A stretch of 61,401 nt of DNA from the IMG/VR virus record IMGVR_UViG_3300049032_000024, positions 1 to 61,401 of that record. One strand, written 5' to 3'. A program made the translations under genes and the position numbers. Shown piece by piece: positions 32,839-54,677 of the stretch (positions within the stretch are counted from its first letter, which is position 1; each line of letters opens with the position of its first letter). This stretch comes from a virus. Its lineage: Duplodnaviria > Caudoviricetes. Under the pieces are notes generated by a model. That model searched no databases, was not told the DNA's origin, and saw only the letters and a list, made by a program, of their open reading frames with translations.

Positions 32839-33295
32839 TAGCTACACGTCTCTTTTCATCATGCTTGCGTCCTGCCTGCCTGATGCAAATACGGCATCTG
32901 CGTGTACCTTTAGGAGTCACGTAGACATTATCAGCACACAGCTCATGCCCTTGAACGCAGTGGGTTAGTGTGGGTCGCACAATGGACTTGTAGAACTCTA
33001 TGCGCCGACGATTGTTTTCCTCATCCGTGACAGCTTCAAGGTGGGAAGGTCTGACACAGTTTCGTGTCCTGCATCTGTGATCCAGCGTCAGGTCTTCTGG
33101 AACTCTACTACCGTACTCGAGTTCCCATGCCACCCTGTGTGCTGCACAGGTCTTCCTGTCTATCCGTATGGAGCCGTACCCTTTGCTGACCTTGGCACCT
33201 GTCCAAAGCCAGCAATCCGCCGATTTAGTTACCTTGTCCCAGAACCTTGCGCTGAGTCCCAAGGCATTCTCAGCGGTTAGGTACTGCAAGGTCAT
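32828..33295 (-). CDS. HNH endonuclease
   Basis: CWLWTG, AHR, LDHRCRTRNCVRPSHLE motifs; HCVQGH Zn tail. Confidence 0.9.
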   Translation of the reverse strand: MTLQYLTAENALGLSARFWDKVTKSADCWLWTGAKVSKGYGSIRIDRKTCAAHRVAWELEYGSRVPEDLTLDHRCRTRNCVRPSHLEAVTDEENNRRRIEFYKSIVRPTLTHCVQGHELCADNVYVTPKGTRRCRICIRQAGRKHDEKRRVAIAA

Positions 33296-33597
33296 GAGGT
33301 GAGGTACGCCCAACGGGATGGGGAAGTATCCATACGCTTACGATACGCTTCCCGCTGCTGTGGGATCAAGCCGCCCCACACGCCATGCTGGATATCGTTT
33401 GTGAGCGCTTCCTGAAGGCACTGGTGCTTGAAGGGGCACCTGTCGCACACACTGATGGCAATGGCCCGTTCTGACTTACCGAAGCGCTCTTCCTCATCAA
33501 GAGGGTCAGCGAACCAGTAGTCAGGGTCCATTTCAGCACACTCAGGAGGGTTCTCAATGACTTGCCTTTGAAACTCTGACCTAAATCCCTCAGCCAA
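33292..33597 (-). CDS. whiB: WhiB-family transcription factor
   Basis: Four Cys (C...CDRC...C) and GVWGG motif. Confidence 0.9.
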   Translation of the reverse strand: MAEGFRSEFQRQVIENPPECAEMDPDYWFADPLDEEERFGKSERAIAISVCDRCPFKHQCLQEALTNDIQHGVWGGLIPQQREAYRKRMDTSPSRWAYLTS

Positions 33598-33961
33598 TGC
33601 GCTGCTCAATCTCCTGCCATACCAGATGAAAGTTCGGTTTTTGTGACGCATAGGTGATGTAGAACTCTTCGTACTTATGCCCAGCGACAGCGACAAAGAA
33701 CTCTACCCAGTCACCGTCATCCCACTTGCGCGGGTCAGACTCATCAGGGAAGGCGTCAGCCAGCTCCGTCAGACCTTCATCCAGCTCTTCCAGCAGGTCA
33801 GTGTAGGCGTTGCCTACCACATGAGCGTACTCATTGAATTCAACCTGCTCAGTCTCAGACATTTCACCGAACGTCCGCCGCAGTGCGATGTGCTCCTGAT
33901 CCCCAGTCTTGGGATCGTACAGGGCTTTCAGCAATGCAAGGTTCTTCTGCTTGTTGTTCAA
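33590..33961 (-). CDS. Hypothetical acidic protein
   Basis: ORF coupled to both neighbours. Confidence 0.6.
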   Translation of the reverse strand: MNNKQKNLALLKALYDPKTGDQEHIALRRTFGEMSETEQVEFNEYAHVVGNAYTDLLEELDEGLTELADAFPDESDPRKWDDGDWVEFFVAVAGHKYEEFYITYASQKPNFHLVWQEIEQRIG

Positions 33962-34579: not shown

Positions 34580-35194
34580 TTACAGGTGTTCCCATTTGCC
34601 AGCATCGTTGTTATCCAGCGTGACCTTCTGGACAATGCCAGATGACGTGTGGTAAATGCAGATACCTTCAGGACGGTCAAACCCATACACAGCCCAAGAG
34701 CCGTGTTCCTGCAAGTTGTCCAGAGCTGCAGTGATTGCTTTTTCCTTCATTGGGCCTTTGTAGAGCACCGGCACACAACGTACGAGTCCGTCTGAGTCTT
34801 CCCAGATGTTCTCAAAGCGGTGAGTGTTGAAGAGGCTGAAGACCTTCTCACCCTTCTTCAATCCATAACCACGCTGGATTCCTGAGCCCCACCACTCGCC
34901 AAAGTGCAACCCTTCGCCAAGGAAGGTGACCAGCTCTTCAGCGTGCGACTGTACCCAGCCAGCAAAGCCAGCGTTGTCCTGTCCAAGCCGGATGAGCTTG
35001 TTGCGGGACTGGGCATAGACCGCGTACCAAGCATCGCCTACGTTGTTGTAGGACAGTACGTTGAGGTCACCTATTTCAGGGGACTCTACGCGCCGGATAC
35101 CTACCGCAGCGTTGGTACCATCAATTTTTTCTGTAATCACAATGTCACGGAAGAAGCGGGAAGTCTTGGGCCAAGGGGTAAATTCGATAGTCAA
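34580..35194 (-). CDS. RNA ligase (Rnl2-like)
   Basis: TEKIDGTN, FGEW and EGI nucleotidyltransferase motifs. Confidence 0.8.
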   Translation of the reverse strand: MTIEFTPWPKTSRFFRDIVITEKIDGTNAAVGIRRVESPEIGDLNVLSYNNVGDAWYAVYAQSRNKLIRLGQDNAGFAGWVQSHAEELVTFLGEGLHFGEWWGSGIQRGYGLKKGEKVFSLFNTHRFENIWEDSDGLVRCVPVLYKGPMKEKAITAALDNLQEHGSWAVYGFDRPEGICIYHTSSGIVQKVTLDNNDAGKWEHL

Positions 35195-35207
35195 TGCTTT
35201 CCTTATC

Positions 35208-36158
35208 TTAGAAGTTTCCAGCGTCAGGACCGTTGACGTGGAAGGTTGTCAGGCCGAGTTTGCGCCACATACGCAGCACACGGTGTCGATCATCGTACAC
35301 ACCAACGATTGTGTAACCTTCCGGCCTGATGTACTTGTTGAAGAGCTCGTACTTGATGATGCTGTCTTCACGCTTCTGTCCGGGCTCAGTCGGACGCATG
35401 TAGAGCTTGTCATAGACAATGCCACTATCAGCCAACCATTTCTCCGTGACCTCGCGGTAGACCTCATCGCGGCCAGAAACAATGATAATGTCACAGCCCA
35501 AGTCCCAGTAACTAGTCAGCGCATGGTGAACGTCCGCGTTGGGTGTGTCCATCCAGACCTTCTCACCATCATAAGGTGATCGGTCACCCATAACTGCCAG
35601 CGTACCGTCAATGTCGAAGATCACTGCACGCCTACGGAACTGAGAGTTGTCAGGTTGCACGTAGGGCTCAATGTTTGCTTCAGGTGCAGGTGTGTAGGTG
35701 ACTTCCTTGGTCAGGTCACGGCCCTTGATGAAGCGGTTGTGCTTGTCACGGATCACGTCAGGGTCAACGTACTTCTTAGTCCACTTGCCGCGCTCTTCGT
35801 TGTTCGCCAGAACCTTGTCCAGCGGAACGTCACGGAAGTCCTGTACGCCGAAGTTCACGCCAAGCTCAGCAGCCAGCTTGATCCACTTCTTCACCGAGCG
35901 GTCAGGCAGGTGAGTATCACTGACGATGACATTGACGCCGTTGGTCAGGTAGTTGCGTACTGCAGCATCCTGAATGCGCGTGACCAGTTCTTCGTCTTCC
36001 TGCTTGCCAGTCCAGTAGGACTTGAAGAGCTGCTGGCGGATTTCGTCACGCTCCACCTTGACCACGTTCTTGAGAACTCGGATGGTGTTGTCTGCCCATG
36101 TGCTCTTACCACTACCGGGGAGCCCCCGCGTGATGAACAGGAACGGTGTTTTCTCCAC
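35208..36158 (-). CDS. Polynucleotide kinase/3'-phosphatase (T4 PNK-like)
   Basis: GLPGSGKST P-loop; FDIDGTL HAD motif; YDDR. Confidence 0.9.
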   Translation of the reverse strand: MEKTPFLFITRGLPGSGKSTWADNTIRVLKNVVKVERDEIRQQLFKSYWTGKQEDEELVTRIQDAAVRNYLTNGVNVIVSDTHLPDRSVKKWIKLAAELGVNFGVQDFRDVPLDKVLANNEERGKWTKKYVDPDVIRDKHNRFIKGRDLTKEVTYTPAPEANIEPYVQPDNSQFRRRAVIFDIDGTLAVMGDRSPYDGEKVWMDTPNADVHHALTSYWDLGCDIIIVSGRDEVYREVTEKWLADSGIVYDKLYMRPTEPGQKREDSIIKYELFNKYIRPEGYTIVGVYDDRHRVLRMWRKLGLTTFHVNGPDAGNF

Positions 36159-37288
36159 TATGCGTTTTCCTTTACTGCCTTGAAGGGTACGTGACCCGGC
36201 TTGAGTTGCTTGTTGATCCAGTCTGTTTGCTTAGCCCAGTTCTTGTCAAGCTCAGCAAATACGGGAGAAGCAACGTCAGGGTAATACTTCAACAAGTATT
36301 GTGCCTGCATTTTCCGAGTGGTAACGCCGCATACCTCCCGTACTGCACGTTCGGCCTGCCGAATCCTTGCGTAAAGCCCCTGAGTCTCCTGTACCAGCCT
36401 TGTGTTCACATCGCGCGCCCAACCTTGAAGCTCATCAGGCAGACCCTCAATGAAGGCGTGTACTGTGCCTGCACAGGAATGCTCCCAGATGGCCTTCTCA
36501 GACAGCCCGAAGATGGCTGAGTGAAGTTCCTTGTACTTGTCACCCTTGAGCTTCAGGTGGTCAATCACGTCACCATCGTCATTGAGAATGTCCAGCACAT
36601 AGCCCTCTTCATCGTCAGGGATGGGAAGGGACAGAGCGTCAGCGAGAGTCATAATCTCTGAGTCTCCCCAGTGCTTGTTGTAGCCCCACGGACGCCACGT
36701 GATGAGGCCTGAGTGGTTGCCTACCGTTCCTAGTGGGATCACAGCATCCAGACCGCTGTAGTCCAGCACAATGCGGTTGTCAGGGTAGACAATCTCCCCG
36801 ATATAGGACTCTCCCATTGCGCGGTACTGGTCAATGGACTCAGCCATGATCGCGTAGTGATCGTTGTCACTCTCATTCATTTTCACCAGAGCAGTAGCGT
36901 GTCCAGCCTGCTCAGACGTGAAGCTGCCACGAGTAGCAATGCCCCACTCAAAGTTGCCTTCGCCATCCTCATAGCACCAGCCAATGCCCAGTGAGCCGTC
37001 TTCCTTCCGGCTGACCCGGACGGGAGTGTGCAGCGGCCATTCCTTTGCGGACGGTTCCCCGTAGTTGAAGAACTTGCGTGGTCCGCGAGCTACCAGCTCA
37101 GACGTTTCGCTGTTGAAAATCAAACCCCGGCAATGGATTGTGACAGCGTTCCAGCGGCGCTCGTATGTAGCCTTGTCCGTGTAGTTGGCGATGATGAGGG
37201 GCAGGAACGGATGCTTCTGCAGCTTGACGTAGCCATACTGTACTTCTGACTGAAACTGCTCGTGAGTGAAAAGCTCAGTTATCTTCAA
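36158..37288 (-). CDS. RNA ligase (T4 Rnl1-like)
   Basis: CRGLI, KFFN, KEDGSL, ATRGSF, EGYV and KLK motifs. Confidence 0.9.
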   Translation of the reverse strand: MKITELFTHEQFQSEVQYGYVKLQKHPFLPLIIANYTDKATYERRWNAVTIHCRGLIFNSETSELVARGPRKFFNYGEPSAKEWPLHTPVRVSRKEDGSLGIGWCYEDGEGNFEWGIATRGSFTSEQAGHATALVKMNESDNDHYAIMAESIDQYRAMGESYIGEIVYPDNRIVLDYSGLDAVIPLGTVGNHSGLITWRPWGYNKHWGDSEIMTLADALSLPIPDDEEGYVLDILNDDGDVIDHLKLKGDKYKELHSAIFGLSEKAIWEHSCAGTVHAFIEGLPDELQGWARDVNTRLVQETQGLYARIRQAERAVREVCGVTTRKMQAQYLLKYYPDVASPVFAELDKNWAKQTDWINKQLKPGHVPFKAVKENA

Positions 37289-37490
37289 TGTCTTCTTCCT
37301 TTGTAGTGAGAATAAGCCGTTGACCGAAGCCTGTACCAAGACCTGTACCGACTAGAGAGAAGTGTTCCATACACATGAATGCCCACATTCCGTTGACGGT
37401 CCTACCGTCATAGTGAGCGTCCTTGTCTACACCTTGTTCCTTACAAAAGTCACACTTGGGATATTCGGCCACGATTGCAAACTTTCCCAT
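37275..37490 (-). CDS. Small Cys-containing protein
   Basis: CDFC...YDGRT...WAFMC...GLGTG; strong RBS. Confidence 0.65.
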   Translation of the reverse strand: MGKFAIVAEYPKCDFCKEQGVDKDAHYDGRTVNGMWAFMCMEHFSLVGTGLGTGFGQRLILTTKEEDIEDN

Positions 37491-37606: not shown

Positions 37607-38884
37607 TCACTTCTCATCTGCTTCAACCGCTACTCCGGGTGCCTGATCCGTGTAGACCAGATCGTAGAGCATCGAGTAAAGCTGACGCTGACCGCCGAAG
37701 CCAGCGCTCGTGGCCATCCAAGGGTTGTTCTTGCGCTTCTCCCAGTCAACGGCACCGAGCTTGCTGACGTACTCCGCAACCGAGTCCCAGAAGTCCGCGT
37801 CATTCTCGGTCTTGTCCAGCGATGTGAGCAGGATATCCGAACCGAGCAGCGAGACTGCCGCGACACCAACCACGTCCTTGAGCCGGTACTTGACCTGCTC
37901 TTCAACCGTCTCGTGCTCAGCGTTCTCAACGAACCGTGGCTGGTCCGTCCAAGCTGGAGCACATGCCTTGGCAACCAGAGCCCAGAAACGCTTTGCCACG
38001 TTCTCAGGCTTGTAGCCGCGCTGCTCGAGCCGGTTGATGACCTTGACCGGAAGCAGGTCACCGACTGACCGACGCAGACCCTCGAAGCTGACGGGCTCCA
38101 CAGCCTTTGGCCTGCCGGTCATGTTGACCAGACCGTTCCACACCGAGTCACCGTCTTCCGCCAGCTCGAAGCTGATCTTCCGAATGGTTTGAGCGTGGGA
38201 CTCTTCACCGGCCTCAGTGTGGACCTTCGTTGCCTCAATGAGAGCCTTGGGCAGCTTGCGCTGGTTGGTGTTGACCTCATCGAAGAAGCTGGCCTCTTCA
38301 GCGTAGTTCAGACCGTAGTACAGTGTGATCGGCACCACACAGTTGAACTCTTCATCGTTCTTCCAGCCGTAGTACAGACCTCCCATGCGGTGTTGACCGT
38401 CAACAATGGAGAAGACTGACTTGCCGAACTCCTGATGTATCTTGCTGATGTTACCAGCATTGAAGAGAGTGTTGAAACGGTTACGGTCCTTGGTGTTGTA
38501 GACCCGGACAGAAATGATGAGTGCCGGAATCTTGAAGCGGTTGTCATCCTTGGCGTAGTACCTTGCGATGCCGGGGAAGCGCTCTTCCATCGGTTCCCGC
38601 TGGTAGCCGTGGTTGCGGGGGCTGGAAGACTGGGGATCGTGTGTGCTGTACGTGCTGATGAACGCCAGCATCTTCAGCTTCTCAGGAGTCATGCCAGCGA
38701 TGGCGACCTTCCCCGGAACCAGTGTGGCCATGATTTCCATCTTGCCCTCTTTGGTAGCTACCTGAGTGGTAGGGGCGGAAGCTGGCTTCACGATGGGGAT
38801 AGCCACGGTGGGGGTCTTGGTGTCCACCTTGTTGGCCTGAGCGCGAGCGGAGCGACGGGTGCGGGGAGTGGTTGCAGTTGCCAT
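37607..38884 (-). CDS. DGQHR-domain (DndB/ParB-like) protein
   Basis: GYQR, IVDGQHR and FDEVNTNQRKL motifs. Confidence 0.85.
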   Translation of the reverse strand: MATATTPRTRRSARAQANKVDTKTPTVAIPIVKPASAPTTQVATKEGKMEIMATLVPGKVAIAGMTPEKLKMLAFISTYSTHDPQSSSPRNHGYQREPMEERFPGIARYYAKDDNRFKIPALIISVRVYNTKDRNRFNTLFNAGNISKIHQEFGKSVFSIVDGQHRMGGLYYGWKNDEEFNCVVPITLYYGLNYAEEASFFDEVNTNQRKLPKALIEATKVHTEAGEESHAQTIRKISFELAEDGDSVWNGLVNMTGRPKAVEPVSFEGLRRSVGDLLPVKVINRLEQRGYKPENVAKRFWALVAKACAPAWTDQPRFVENAEHETVEEQVKYRLKDVVGVAAVSLLGSDILLTSLDKTENDADFWDSVAEYVSKLGAVDWEKRKNNPWMATSAGFGGQRQLYSMLYDLVYTDQAPGVAVEADEK

Positions 38885-39052
38885 TTTGTGTTCCTCTTTC
38901 GGTAGTTGGTAGCTTCTTGCTACTGGTACTAACTTACTTTCAACCACTAGCACATGCAACACTTGTTCTACAACTCCGTGTACTCTAATTCCGTGATGTG
39001 GACTACCTGCTTCGTACTTGTTTGACGGGTTTGTAAAGTCTATGATCTATCC

Positions 39053-46220: not shown

Positions 46221-46643
46221 TGTGGATAACCTGTGGAGAACGTCGTTCATTTAGGGGTACAAGTATTTGGTTGTTTGAGCACTTGAAGCGCTTAGAACGG
46301 CATACAGGGCGTTTAGGTCACGATTTATAACAGTTCCCTCGAGCTCTTGACGTAATGCCGATGTGCTGTTATTCGCGTATGCGCGCGTTGGTAATAAGGC
46401 ACGATTCTAGGTTCGGTCACGGTTAGATAACGGTTAGGTGAACAGAACAGAGATTTAGATGCATATGCATCCAACCTGTGGATAACTCTGCAAAAGTGTG
46501 GATAACTTATGCCAAATTGTGGATAACTACCGATGCCGGCGTGGATAACTTTGCTCATTCTGTGGATAACTTTGGCGATTCTGTGGAAAAGTAGCCCTTT
46601 TCTGTGGATAAACCTGTGGAAAATGGCAATATTTGGTGGATAG
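46221..46643 (-). repeat. DnaA-box array (TTATCCACA on the minus strand)
   Basis: Perfect TGTGGATAA at 46221, 46477, 46497, 46518, 46561, 46603; one mismatch at 46232, 46540, 46582, 46615; two at 46635. Confidence 0.9.
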
Positions 46644-50620: not shown

Positions 50621-50887
50621 ATGGCTAACAACGACTACCGGCGCGCGGAACTTTCCAACGTCGATGCAACGGGCGAGTACCCGGCAAAACTGAAGATAGC
50701 TAGTGACGATGGAGATACTAAGTGGCTGGACATTACAGCCACGGAGTTTGAACAGATAAAAGCTGTGTTGCTGGACTACCGGAACGACTGTGCTCATGAG
50801 CAGACACTAGATGACCTCTCAGTCTCTTTTGAGTCTGGAGCAGAGCAGAAGTGCTCTAAGTGTGGGGAGAGCGTCACACGTTGGTAA
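50621..50887 (+). CDS. Hypothetical early protein
   Basis: TKWLDI motif; C-terminal CSKC. Confidence 0.6.
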   Translation: MANNDYRRAELSNVDATGEYPAKLKIASDDGDTKWLDITATEFEQIKAVLLDYRNDCAHEQTLDDLSVSFESGAEQKCSKCGESVTRW

Positions 50888-50913
50888 GAGACAGGAAGTA
50901 GGACTAGACGTAG

Positions 50914-50975
50914 GAAGAGCCCTAGCGGCACCTGAAGGACTGTAAAAGGTCCGGACGGTACTGCTAGGGCTCTTC
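50914..50975 (+). terminator. Long hairpin closing the early operon
   Basis: GAAGAGCCCTAGCGG...CTGCTAGGGCTCTTC. Confidence 0.6.
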
Positions 50976-51332
50976 TGTGTTTGGGGCTCTTACAGGGGCG
51001 TACAGGGCGTAGGAAGAGCTGCAGGGGACAGCCATAGGGGAAGGGCTCTTACAGGCACTCAGAAGGGCAGCTATGGCGTATTCCGGGTAGGGAGAGCTAC
51101 AGGGGAGAAGTTCTACATTTGGGCAGTGTTTGTAACGCATTACATACAGTGTGGTTTATGTAGGTTAGGAAAAGCTTTGTTTCTGTGCGGGATAAATGGG
51201 TTATTGGTGAGATAGGGAAAAGGGAAAGGTTAGGGATAGGGGAGATATATGGAATGCATTACAAAAGCACCAACGCCGAAACGAGCAAAAGCCGCTAAAA
51301 CGCCGTGGTCTAGACCAGTGCTTTTCTGTCTC

Positions 51333-51420
51333 TCTATCTCTATTTATTATTTTTTTTATATTTATATATGTATTGAATTACTGACAGAAAGAAGAAAGGG
51401 AAGAGATAGGCGACTTGTAA
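51333..51420. repeat. AT-rich non-coding element, copy B
   Basis: Homologous to 20993-21080. Confidence 0.7.
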
Positions 51421-51862
51421 CCATGTTTCGCACTCGCGCGTGTCGTGTAACGCATTTCATCCAAATGCACAGGGCTCGAGCACGCTGCAGCGCTAGCCAT
51501 ACGTGCTACAGGGGACAGGACAGGGGATAGGCATGACTAGCGCTGTATGCCTACGTAACGGCCTAACAGACACACAGATAGGCATTCACCCACAGAGAGG
51601 GGTTCAAGGGCTCACAGAGGCACACAGAGGCTTAGAGCGCAGAGAAGGGCTTAGAGCTCGAGAAGCACAGAAGAGCGCACAAAGCAAGGGGAAAGTAAGT
51701 ACCTGAGAGAACAGGCTTTTGTACTGCCCTTTGTACTGTGTATGTAGATGCATATGCATGTATATGGTTCATGCGTATGCATGTATAAGTAATGACTCGA
51801 GTGAGAATCTATGCTGCATAGTCATACAGAGGTGTGGGAGCTTATGCAAGGCTGCAAAAACA

Positions 51863-51878
51863 TGTTTCACGTGAAACT
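51863..51878. promoter_or_regulatory. parS site (chromosomal ParB box)
   Basis: TGTTTCACGTGAAACT: 15/16 match to the universal parS consensus with a perfect 14-bp core. Confidence 0.85.
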
Positions 51879-51988
51879 GTGAAAAAGTACCGACTAAATC
51901 AGTTTCATAATGAGAACCATTCGCATTTTGGGACTCCTTTTGAGAAACAAATATCGCCAACCCGTTTTTTCCCTATAGGCTTTGGGGC

Positions 51989-52177
51989 ATGGATAAAGAA
52001 CTCGTTGACCTCATCAAGGCTGAGATAGCCCACAACATCACTCCTGTCATAGGCTGGCTCCGTAGGGACGCACAGACTGGCAGGGTGGACGACGATCAAG
52101 ACCGCCTGAATGAATACAGGAGGCGCTTACAGAAGGCTGCAGAGGACGTAGCTGTTGCTGTCGAAAATCGCAAGTGA
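51989..52177 (+). CDS. Hypothetical protein (leaderless)
   Basis: TAGGCT 7 nt before ATG; no RBS. Confidence 0.6.
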   Translation: MDKELVDLIKAEIAHNITPVIGWLRRDAQTGRVDDDQDRLNEYRRRLQKAAEDVAVAVENRK

Positions 52178-52219
52178 GAAACATTTAGTCGCTATGCGTT
52201 TTTCCCCTATGCTGTCCTT

Positions 52220-52444
52220 ATGACCAACTACGAGAACCTGCCCATCCTTGACCGCTACGCTGACCTCATTGCCCTTGACACTGGCTCTGCTGTCCTTACC
52301 TCTGACAGCTCGGATACCGTTGTCCTGAAGAGCAGGCTGGGACACTTCACCAATGAAGACGGCGGAGAGGTAGACGCCCGTATACTGTGGGATTACGGTA
52401 CCCACCCTTTCCGGCTTCTGTACGATCCCAAAAACCGATCCTGA
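52220..52444 (+). CDS. Hypothetical protein (leaderless)
   Basis: TATGCT 6 nt before ATG. Confidence 0.6.
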   Translation: MTNYENLPILDRYADLIALDTGSAVLTSDSSDTVVLKSRLGHFTNEDGGEVDARILWDYGTHPFRLLYDPKNRS

Positions 52445-52496
52445 AAAATCCGCCGCAAAATTTTGCCTATAGGCGATTTTCTTGTACGCTTGGGGC

Positions 52497-52778
52497 ATGA
52501 CATACAACGAACGCAGAGAAACTTTGGAAATTTCCAAGGGACAGCTCGAGGTTGAGCCCGTCTTGGATCACGATGGAGAACTGGAAATCTCCACCGGCTG
52601 GGACAGATGTGAAAATGGCCCCCACTACTTCTTCCTGACCGTGGCGGATATGATCGCGCTCCGTGACCACATTGACGCTGTACTGGAAGAGCGCAACAAG
52701 CCCCGCGTGGTGAGCAGGGAAGAAGCAGCGGACTTCGCAAGACGCTGGGATGCTCGAGTGGAAGAGGGCCGCAAGTGA
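52497..52778 (+). CDS. Hypothetical protein (leaderless)
   Basis: TACGCT 6 nt before ATG. Confidence 0.6.
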   Translation: MTYNERRETLEISKGQLEVEPVLDHDGELEISTGWDRCENGPHYFFLTVADMIALRDHIDAVLEERNKPRVVSREEAADFARRWDARVEEGRK

Positions 52779-53119
52779 CCATCGCTGACGCACTCCCCGT
52801 TGTAGGCATTGTGCTGCTCGGTGCTGCACTATTCCTGTTCTTCTACTTCGCTTTCAAGGCGTACACCGTCCCACCCAAGGCTGAGGCACGTCCGGCGTGG
52901 GACGGTAAGCACACGCTACGGGGCATCAAACACGTAGAACACTTCGGCAACCGGCCTGAAGACTACTCCACCGGCTGGCTCTGGGAATGTGCTTGTGGGA
53001 TCGGGAACAAGTACCGCATAGGCTTTGATCTTCCCTACACAGAGGGAGAAGCCATCGCTGAGTACAAAGAGCACCGTGACTTCTACAAGGGTATGCAGGA
53101 AGACGGCTCGAGCCTGTGA
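52775..53119 (+). CDS. Membrane-anchored hypothetical protein
   Basis: N-terminal TM segment; WECACG motif. Confidence 0.6.
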   Translation: MTIADALPVVGIVLLGAALFLFFYFAFKAYTVPPKAEARPAWDGKHTLRGIKHVEHFGNRPEDYSTGWLWECACGIGNKYRIGFDLPYTEGEAIAEYKEHRDFYKGMQEDGSSL

Positions 53120-53349
53120 GCGGTACCAAGAGCAGTGGCAGGAAGCTCTCACCAGAGCGCAAGCAGTTGTTGGACAACGCTGTGGCTGATGGCTGGCCTA
53201 TCCGCCAAATCATCAGCACATACGGCATTGGTACGTCCACAATCAAGAAGCACTACCCTGACTACAGAGGTATGACGGATTCCCATGAGTCCGGCAAAAT
53301 GAGCTGGCAGAACCAGCATGTGCTGCGGGATTTGAAGTTGACAGCCTAA
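53116..53349 (+). CDS. Small HTH protein
   Basis: DGWPIRQIISTYGIGTSTIKKHYP. Confidence 0.65.
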   Translation: MSGTKSSGRKLSPERKQLLDNAVADGWPIRQIISTYGIGTSTIKKHYPDYRGMTDSHESGKMSWQNQHVLRDLKLTA

Positions 53350-53943: not shown

Positions 53944-54039
53944 AATCCCTCTTCTACAACGCCATGTACCAGCTCTGTGACTTCATCATGTGGGCCAGAA
54001 TCAATGACCGTGAACACTACGCAAGATGGTGGGAAGCAA

Positions 54040-54303
54040 GTGAGTATTACCGCCGCAAGCGGGACGCTGCCTAGCAAGTACGTCCGCAACCCTCGCGGGG
54101 GCAGACCTTTGATGAATCCAGCGTATGTGGCTCTCTGGGAGTCCTACTTGGATGAAGGCTACTCCGGTAAGGCTGTTGCTGAACTGTTCGGTGTTATGAA
54201 GCACACGGTCTACAGGTACTACCCTGACAAGGTGTGGACCAGCAAGCAGGCTTCTGCACACGGCAAACTAGTGCGGAAACTCAACGAACTGAGCATGTGC
54301 TAG
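54040..54303 (+). CDS. Small HTH protein
   Basis: EGYSGKAVAELFGVMKHTVYRYYP; resembles the 53116 gene. Confidence 0.65.
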   Translation: MSITAASGTLPSKYVRNPRGGRPLMNPAYVALWESYLDEGYSGKAVAELFGVMKHTVYRYYPDKVWTSKQASAHGKLVRKLNELSMC

Positions 54304-54378: not shown

Positions 54379-54452
54379 GTGGGTGTAGCTCAATTGGTTA
54401 GAGTGCCGGTTTTGGGAACCGGAAGTTGCAGGTTCAAGTCCTGTCTCCCGCA
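54379..54452 (+). tRNA. tRNA-Pro(UGG)
   Basis: Cloverleaf; CCGGT-TTTGGGA-ACCGG anticodon arm; GGTTCAAGTCC T arm; one T-T mismatch in the acceptor stem. Confidence 0.85.
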
Positions 54453-54535
54453 CGAAGTCGATATGGACGTGACGACTTCTAATAAAACTCGATCCGCGTC
54501 ATTTGTTGGGGTTTGACGGTAACTAACCCCTTCGG

Positions 54536-54608
54536 TGGGAGTTAGCTCAGATGGCAGAGCAGCGCACTGTTAATGCGCGGGTCACAGGTTCGAGCCCTGT
54601 ACTCCCAG
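54536..54608 (+). tRNA. tRNA-Asn(GUU)
   Basis: TGGGAGT/ACTCCCA acceptor stem; GCGCA-CTGTTAA-TGCGC anticodon arm; GGTTCGAGCCC T arm. Confidence 0.92.
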
Positions 54609-54677
54609 CAAGAGCAGCATACGGGCGGAACCCCAAGACCGAGGCCGCTGTGATGGCTCTTGGTGGCGACCTAATAC

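Follow-up and report, generated by a model that had tools for sequence, protein, structure and literature searches.

A single exact copy of the chromosomal-type parS core, the 14-bp palindrome GTTTCACGTGAAAC, lies between the small early genes of a phage genome recovered in IMG/VR, and we tentatively read it as a recently gained, functional site at which host ParB nucleates in the manner of phage phi29, a reading that carries slightly more doubt than confidence. The window, by which we mean the whole stretch of DNA analysed, spans 61,401 bp and is a complete virus record of IMG/VR (CheckV completeness 100%). The site itself is real; that it has a selected function is plausible, falling only a little short of an even chance. 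The evidence that bears on this comes from the identity of the site with host sequences, from the composition of the genome and of the region around the site, from a survey of viral contigs and from the relatives of the phage, and the last of these also supplies the most serious alternative to a functional reading.

The palindrome occurs once in the record, and a pattern scan of the whole record found no second parS site at two or fewer mismatches. With one flanking base on each side (51863-51878) it reads TGTTTCACGTGAAACT, which agrees at 15 of 16 positions with the 16-bp parS consensus printed as TGTTTCACGTGAAACA (PMC10197239); measured against the 16-bp palindromic consensus TGTTNCACGTGAAACA, the match is likewise 15 of 16 overall and 14 of 14 across the core. 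An earlier note on this DNA had placed a perfect parS site at 51863-51878; the match is exact for the inner 14-mer, the full 16-mer differing from the consensus at one position. That the motif is the ParB-binding site of actinobacterial chromosomes, as the same note had it, is borne out: in a review's table M. smegmatis is entered with the same core (three sites) and C. glutamicum with TGTTNCACGTGAAACA (ten sites), and the exact 14-mer is present in 8, 5 and 10 copies, within 7-8 kb, in three Arthrobacter genomes and in three copies in one Salinibacterium genome. In each of these four genomes the copies are clustered within 3-8 kb on one contig, and a reversed control sequence has no copy in any of them. 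According to that review, one parS near oriC suffices for origin positioning. Since the phage 14-mer is identical to the clustered host parS, host ParB would be likely to bind the phage site if the host is of the Arthrobacter kind. Physical binding of host ParB, selected or not, in fact seems likely whether the site works as in phi29, matches parS incidentally or titrates ParB.

Contigs of two further runs (X8 and X9) span the site with zero differences, and additional soil and rhizosphere runs have yielded assembled contigs of the same genotype with the site intact. Its presence in these contigs excludes an assembly error and is silent on selection; the further-run contigs are identical to the window and thus uninformative on variation, and positions 51200-51330, which were uncovered, were left out of the evidence. 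We also considered whether the site is a captured host fragment and rejected this, the flanks of 25 bacterial sites that share a 20-mer with it being unrelated to those of the phage site (5-15 of 40 bases identical).

Judged by its gene content (Table 1), the phage is a lytic actinophage. Its host is likely to be Arthrobacter-like, as inferred from the WhiB-like regulator and from the portal protein, which shares 52% identity with the portals of Amigo-group Arthrobacter phages; weaker portal matches were to phages of Microbacterium, Clavibacter, Curtobacterium and Streptomyces. Scans of 50 ORFs against PHROGs and of 20 against Pfam turned up neither an integrase nor a repressor. A six-frame search of the whole record at E<=1 returned no match to ParB_N (PF02195), HTH_ParB (PF17762) or the ParA-type AAA_31 (PF13614), in agreement with the earlier claim that parA and a canonical parB are absent, a claim qualified by the presence of a DndB-like protein. 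This is the only protein of ParB-related fold found in the record and is encoded 13 kb from the site; DndB has been described as ParB-like (PMC12704722). Homologues are encoded by two related IMG/VR records, G002 (73% identity) and G003 (59%), and none was found in phage Amigo. Because the protein is kept in G002 and G003, which lack the parS site, it is not tied to that site, and for the same reason we judged it unlikely that the phage's own DndB-like protein is the site's binder. It may relate to DNA modification or regulation, and the analysis identified no partner genes. Elsewhere in the genome, two RNA ligase genes with a polynucleotide kinase gene between them lie in a row on the minus strand (34580-37339), an arrangement that resembles a tRNA-repair module, and there are at least four HNH endonuclease genes (32828, 43211, 45213 and 55548).

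Table 1. Features of the 61,401-bp window, with positions, strand or direction, and basis of assignment where given
Feature	Position	Strand or direction	Basis
Structural and lysis genes	0.3-20 kb		
Replication block: DNA polymerase, primase-helicase, Sak4-like protein, exonuclease, WhiB, RNA ligases, polynucleotide kinase, helicase, several HNH endonucleases	24-46 kb	leftward	
WhiB-like regulator, actinobacterial-host marker	33292-33696	-	phrog_472, E 4.5e-16
DndB-like protein, 451 aa, ParB-related fold, not canonical ParB	37607-38962	-	PF14072, E 8.6e-12
Divergent non-coding region	about 45.9-47.1 kb		
DnaA-box 9-mer array, one orientation, six exact TTATCCACA and four one-mismatch boxes	46221-46623	-	
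Small early ORFs	47.1 to 55.5 kb	rightward	
Intergenic region holding the site, purine-rich and repeat-rich, among rightward early genes	51531-51988 (about 460 bp)	+	
Two copies of ATGCRTATGCATGTATA (51748-51764 and 51771-51787), able to pair as a long hairpin, kept in relatives	51745-51787	+	
GTTTCACGTGAAAC, chromosomal-type parS core	51864-51877	.	exact match and Arthrobacter copies
Conserved 33-nt block AAGTACCGACTAAATCAGTTTCATAATGAGAAC, starting 7 nt past the palindrome	51885-51917	+	
36-nt unit TGAGAAACA...TTTTYCCCTAT	51941-51976, again at 52175-52210	+	repeat and conservation
tRNA-Pro and tRNA-Asn	54379-54609		
HNH endonuclease, then large terminase (55882), then portal (57636)	downstream of early ORFs		

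The parS site is non-coding, as the earlier note had also stated. It is flanked by ORFs at 51249-51530 and 51989-52177, and the stop-bounded open stretches that cross it reach at most 67 codons, none of them common to the window and five related sequences; three other frames, found in the window, L140 and L141 respectively, extend beyond the segment extracted. Conservation in this region takes the form of short nucleotide blocks separated by indels and variable spacers. One such block, AAGTACCGACTAAATCAGTTTCATAATGAGAAC, served as the anchor for finding relatives and may be a promoter or operator. The core GATGCATATGCAT is found both here (51745) and beside the DnaA-box array (46458-46471), which suggests a regulator site shared by the two loci. 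The TGAGAAACA unit stands directly upstream of two consecutive small ORFs (51989 and 52220), is kept in relatives and has two matches in the window, a number reached in none of 100 shuffles; we regard it as a candidate phage-specific early promoter or leader that does not fit the sigma-70 consensus. Scanning of 51200-52300 gave no sigma-70 promoter and one weak terminator-like site on the minus strand (51716-51701), with no excess over shuffles. A role for the palindrome itself as a terminator was rejected, as a T-run follows on the minus strand only, with no upstream gene there, and the arrangement is not seen in relatives; the sole Rfam match within 50800-52600, to mir-297, scored 25 bits against a gathering score of 90 and was rejected as chance.

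Some way upstream, the contigs of two relatives, G001 and G002 (position 1 of L004 and L006), end at positions that map to about 51285-51307 of the window, by extrapolation in the case of G001, and these ends adjoin the palindrome TGGTCTAGACCA (51306-51317). In phage Amigo, a direct terminal repeat of 1,584 bp has its left end in a comparable non-coding gap. It may be that a physical end of the genome, or the boundary of a repeat, is situated about 560 bp upstream of parS.

A second element of host type lies 5.3 kb from parS, in the divergent non-coding region that separates the replication genes (leftward) from the early genes (rightward). This is the array of DnaA boxes, which are spaced about 21 bp apart from 46477 on. 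Across the genome there are 32 DnaA-box matches at one mismatch or fewer, compared with 19.3 +/- 4.4 in shuffled sequence, and none of 100 shuffles reached 32. In the complete relative G003, six boxes are packed into about 120 bp at the syntenic position (L202 1480-1604); the equivalent gap holds one or two boxes in Amigo and one in G002. On the host side, TTRTCCACA is about fourfold commoner than its reversed control in two Arthrobacter genomes, and the TTATCCACA type, to which the phage array belongs, is frequent on origin-side contigs of Arthrobacter, its clusters sharing contigs with the parS clusters. The phage array is likely to be a host-DnaA-dependent origin, a regulatory site or a titration site, and the lineage appears to use host origin proteins. 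We found no literature on DnaA-box arrays in lytic actinophages.

We then considered how often parS-like sequences are met in viral contigs, counting these as they are recorded in IMG/VR and not as individually confirmed phages. The 16-mer class of the window was found in at least 118 IMG/VR stretches falling into at least 94 flank clusters; a central-swap control, in which the two central bases are exchanged, gave 56 stretches in 29 clusters, and a reversed control 16-mer gave five stretches. Given that the two controls differ to this extent (5 vs 56 stretches), the raw excess of parS 16-mers over controls is uncertain, and we therefore relied on the contrast between coding and non-coding positions. 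Among the matches listed, 50 of 120 parS sites (42%) lie outside called ORFs, compared with 3 of 56 central-swap sites (5%), one of five reversed sites and 14% of random positions, and the non-coding contrast among these listed parS matches is strong (Fisher p = 1.7e-7). A ParB_N match was present in five of the first 100 parS-carrying records, and in 2 of the 17 of those that are at least 90% complete. Clusters of DnaA boxes (at least four boxes per 300 bp) accompany 2 of 118 parS loci among the matches listed, so that these matches are not mainly oriC fragments; pairing of parS with DnaA boxes as a general rule was rejected on the same count. Two of the contigs hold two parS-like 16-mers each, L046 (3872 and 5677) and L063 (6230 and 6258), L046 coming from a low-GC record of 12.9 kb that has inverted terminal repeats. 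The presence of host-type parS in viral contigs that lack ParB may be a general phenomenon, and among the IMG/VR matches listed its non-coding form appears common enough to merit a proper census.

The relatives of the phage give a rather different picture of the site. A megablast search of 51000-53000 against GenBank phages gave no match, and the blastn matches were to tRNA genes only. Relatives were found in IMG/VR through the portal protein (seven loci, 76-84% identity) and through the conserved block adjoining the site, where two hits of the pattern scan (L135 and L136) proved on alignment to be unrelated coding matches and were dropped. Five related sequences have the same intergenic architecture (L134, L137, L139, L140 and L141), of which four are distinct: L134 is on the same contig as L004 and L137 on the same contig as L006, and L139 is nearly identical to L137 in this stretch. 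The 14-mer is absent from the homologous intergenic region of all five (four distinct), and no parS site at one mismatch or fewer is present anywhere in G001, G002 or G003 (33%, 94% and 100% complete, respectively) or in phage Amigo. A single site at two mismatches in G003 lies inside a 117-aa ORF, is expected by chance and was set aside. Conservation in related phages, to which the earlier note had looked for support, is thus not found.

What the relatives do possess at this position is an inverted repeat of their own. All four distinct relatives carry one, with arms of 5-7 bp, 0-7 nt before the conserved block: where the window has GTTTC-ACGT-GAAAC, L137 and L139 have ACTTTC-ATGC-GAAAGT, L140 has TTGAGAA-AGA-TTCTCAA, L141 has TGCGAA-CAA-TTCGCA and L134 has GTTTG/CAAAC. 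Shuffle p-values for the repeats of the four relatives are 0.198, 0.067, 0.0035 and 0.046 (1e-3 when combined), and that for the window is 0.009. Since differing inverted repeats stand at the same spot, the conserved property is a palindrome or hairpin and not the parS sequence; no other evidence speaks as strongly against a selected ParB role.

It is consequently a serious possibility, if one that we consider somewhat improbable, that the identity with parS is incidental, in that a conserved inverted-repeat position, serving as an operator for a phage DNA-binding protein that co-evolves with it or as an RNA or DNA hairpin in an early leader, happens to spell parS in this genome and that ParB binding is an unselected side effect. 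Beyond the repeats of the relatives, this would fit the resemblance of the L137 repeat to that of the window with the outer pair swapped from G:C to C:G, the absence of parS from the relatives and the richness of the early region in such elements: there are nine perfect 14-bp palindromes in the genome against 3.7 expected, and six of the nine lie within the 6.7-kb early region at 45.9-52.6 kb (binomial p = 1e-4). Small HTH proteins are encoded shortly downstream of the site (53116-53349 and 53977-54303), and the scanning of very many windows will yield some parS sequences by chance. However, even for a palindrome with 7-bp arms the odds of the exact parS sequence are 1 in 16,384, or about 5e-4 over the nine palindromes of the genome. 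The excess of non-coding parS over control palindromes among the viral-contig matches listed also speaks against an incidental match, as does the co-occurrence of the DnaA-box array. Nor does a conserved hairpin gain from RNAalifold, which placed a hairpin near the site columns of the five sequences with broken pairs and an unfavourable covariation term (+3.04), and which we discarded as support. If the match is incidental, the lesson is one of caution, in that a perfect fit to a consensus in a single genome, when relatives lack it, does not amount to evidence of function.

Chance in the plainer sense can be approached through the expected number of sites. Under mononucleotide, first-order Markov and uniform models, the expected number of exact 14-mers in 61,401 bases is 1.9e-4 to 3.0e-4; at two or fewer mismatches at least one match arises in 25 of 100 shuffles, so only the exact match is informative. 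Chance alone is unlikely, whether one considers the single genome or the rate at which non-coding parS is met in viral contigs. We therefore think it quite improbable that the 14-mer is simply neutral sequence, neither a ParB site nor a structural repeat. Its single copy, its lack of conservation, its flanks unlike those of bacterial sites and the look-elsewhere effect over a very large scan are all as such an account would have them, but the small number of expected copies, the enrichment of non-coding parS among the viral-contig matches listed and the location of the site exactly where relatives hold inverted repeats are not. Least likely of all, and in our view very unlikely indeed, is that a high-copy phage parS soaks up host ParB and so disturbs division, SMC loading or the segregation of origins to the advantage of the phage: the sequence evidence would be that for a phi29-like site, phage copies would presumably outnumber the 5-10 host sites once replication starts and the DnaA-box array could titrate DnaA likewise, but nothing specific to titration was found, the benefit is hard to see for a phage that kills its host within one cycle, the site is not kept in relatives and ParB is non-essential in the Actinobacteria listed in the review table.

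If the site is functional, as we tentatively prefer, then one phage lineage would recently have gained it, in an early regulatory region where relatives hold other inverted repeats. A host ParB dimer would bind the site, close as a CTP-dependent clamp and slide over the neighbouring phage DNA, and the resulting complex could recruit SMC and interact with ParA, steps that we infer from established ParB biochemistry. Infecting or slowly replicating phage DNA would in this way be tied to the origin-segregation apparatus of the host, and, when infection is delayed in starving soil hosts (a carrier state), might be positioned and handed on to daughter or dormant cells. On the model of phi29, segregation by the host apparatus would be the most likely benefit of the site. 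A functional reading has in its favour the exact match, its non-coding position and identity with host sites, the want of a ParB or ParA of the phage's own, the DnaA array, the census contrast and the example of phi29. Against it stand the single copy, where phi29 has five and hosts have 3-10, the absence of the site from all five related sequences and the lytic gene content. We know of no carrier state in this phage group. ParB clamps slide off free DNA ends, and this, taken together with a genome end that may be nearby, also counts against a functional site.

The recruitment of host ParB by the phage, which the earlier note had proposed, thus keeps its plausibility through the phi29 precedent, the DnaA array and the census, and is weakened by the lack of conservation, a result that the note itself had named as telling against it. 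For its more specific suggestions, that the phage titrates ParB or protects its DNA, nothing was found in our analysis that supports either in particular.

A bolder version of the functional reading, which we think unlikely although worth stating, is that the lineage mimics the neighbourhood of a host origin. The roughly ten DnaA boxes, an array kept in at least one complete relative, would together with parS lead DnaA, ParB, ParA and SMC to treat the incoming genome as they would a small chromosome origin, giving a phi29-like carrier state free of spores in soil Actinobacteria, and non-coding parS in ParB-less phages would be a widespread, rapidly gained and lost, and unsurveyed strategy. A functional site would suggest that lytic phages have a hidden way of persisting in starving hosts and, taken with the DnaA array, would reveal a phage that assembles cis elements of the host origin type. 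As leads, the DnaA array and the IMG/VR pattern are more robust and wider in reach than the parS site.

Our search of the literature found no report of host-type parS in actinophages, and the site is best placed by comparison with better known systems. It does not belong to the parABS cassettes of phages and plasmids, because there is no ParA or ParB. Phage P1 and the extrachromosomal prophages of mycobacteriophages are temperate, encode a ParA and a ParB of their own and have distinct parS repeats; what they share with the present case is a centromere-like site on phage DNA, whilst the phage studied here is lytic by gene content. Plasmid and P1 origins contain DnaA boxes, and the consensus DnaA-box array beside replication genes on a mobile replicon is a likeness to these, with the difference that it is here found in a lytic actinophage with its own polymerase and primase-helicase. 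The closest sequence likeness is to the chromosomes of Actinobacteria (M. smegmatis, C. glutamicum, S. coelicolor and Arthrobacter), where the 14-bp core is identical and a cluster of DnaA boxes lies at a distance of a few kb to tens of kb. On chromosomes, however, 3-21 clustered sites lie beside parAB and oriC, an arrangement not found in the record, where there is one site and no parA or parB, and the flanks of the phage site are unrelated to those of host sites.

The closest functional likeness would be to phi29, for which the original study of parS and Spo0J is reportedly that of Meijer et al. 2005. Five parS sites are described in lytic phi29, where host Spo0J takes part in the segregation of the phage genome into the prespore (PMC2731898). 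Both phages are lytic, are without parA and parB and bear parS of the host chromosomal type, and in phi29 the ParB homologue of the host is exploited for genome segregation. The differences are that phi29 has five sites and the present phage one, that binding has been shown for phi29 and is here predicted from sequence identity, that the site here is not kept among relatives, and that in phi29 the role is tied to endospore entrapment and Spo0A boxes. The principle of phi29 is that a virulent phage borrows the centromere protein of its host so that its genome gets carried along. Arthrobacter-like hosts are not, to our knowledge, endospore formers, and if the site described here is functional, this principle would extend from spore-forming Firmicutes to soil Actinobacteria.
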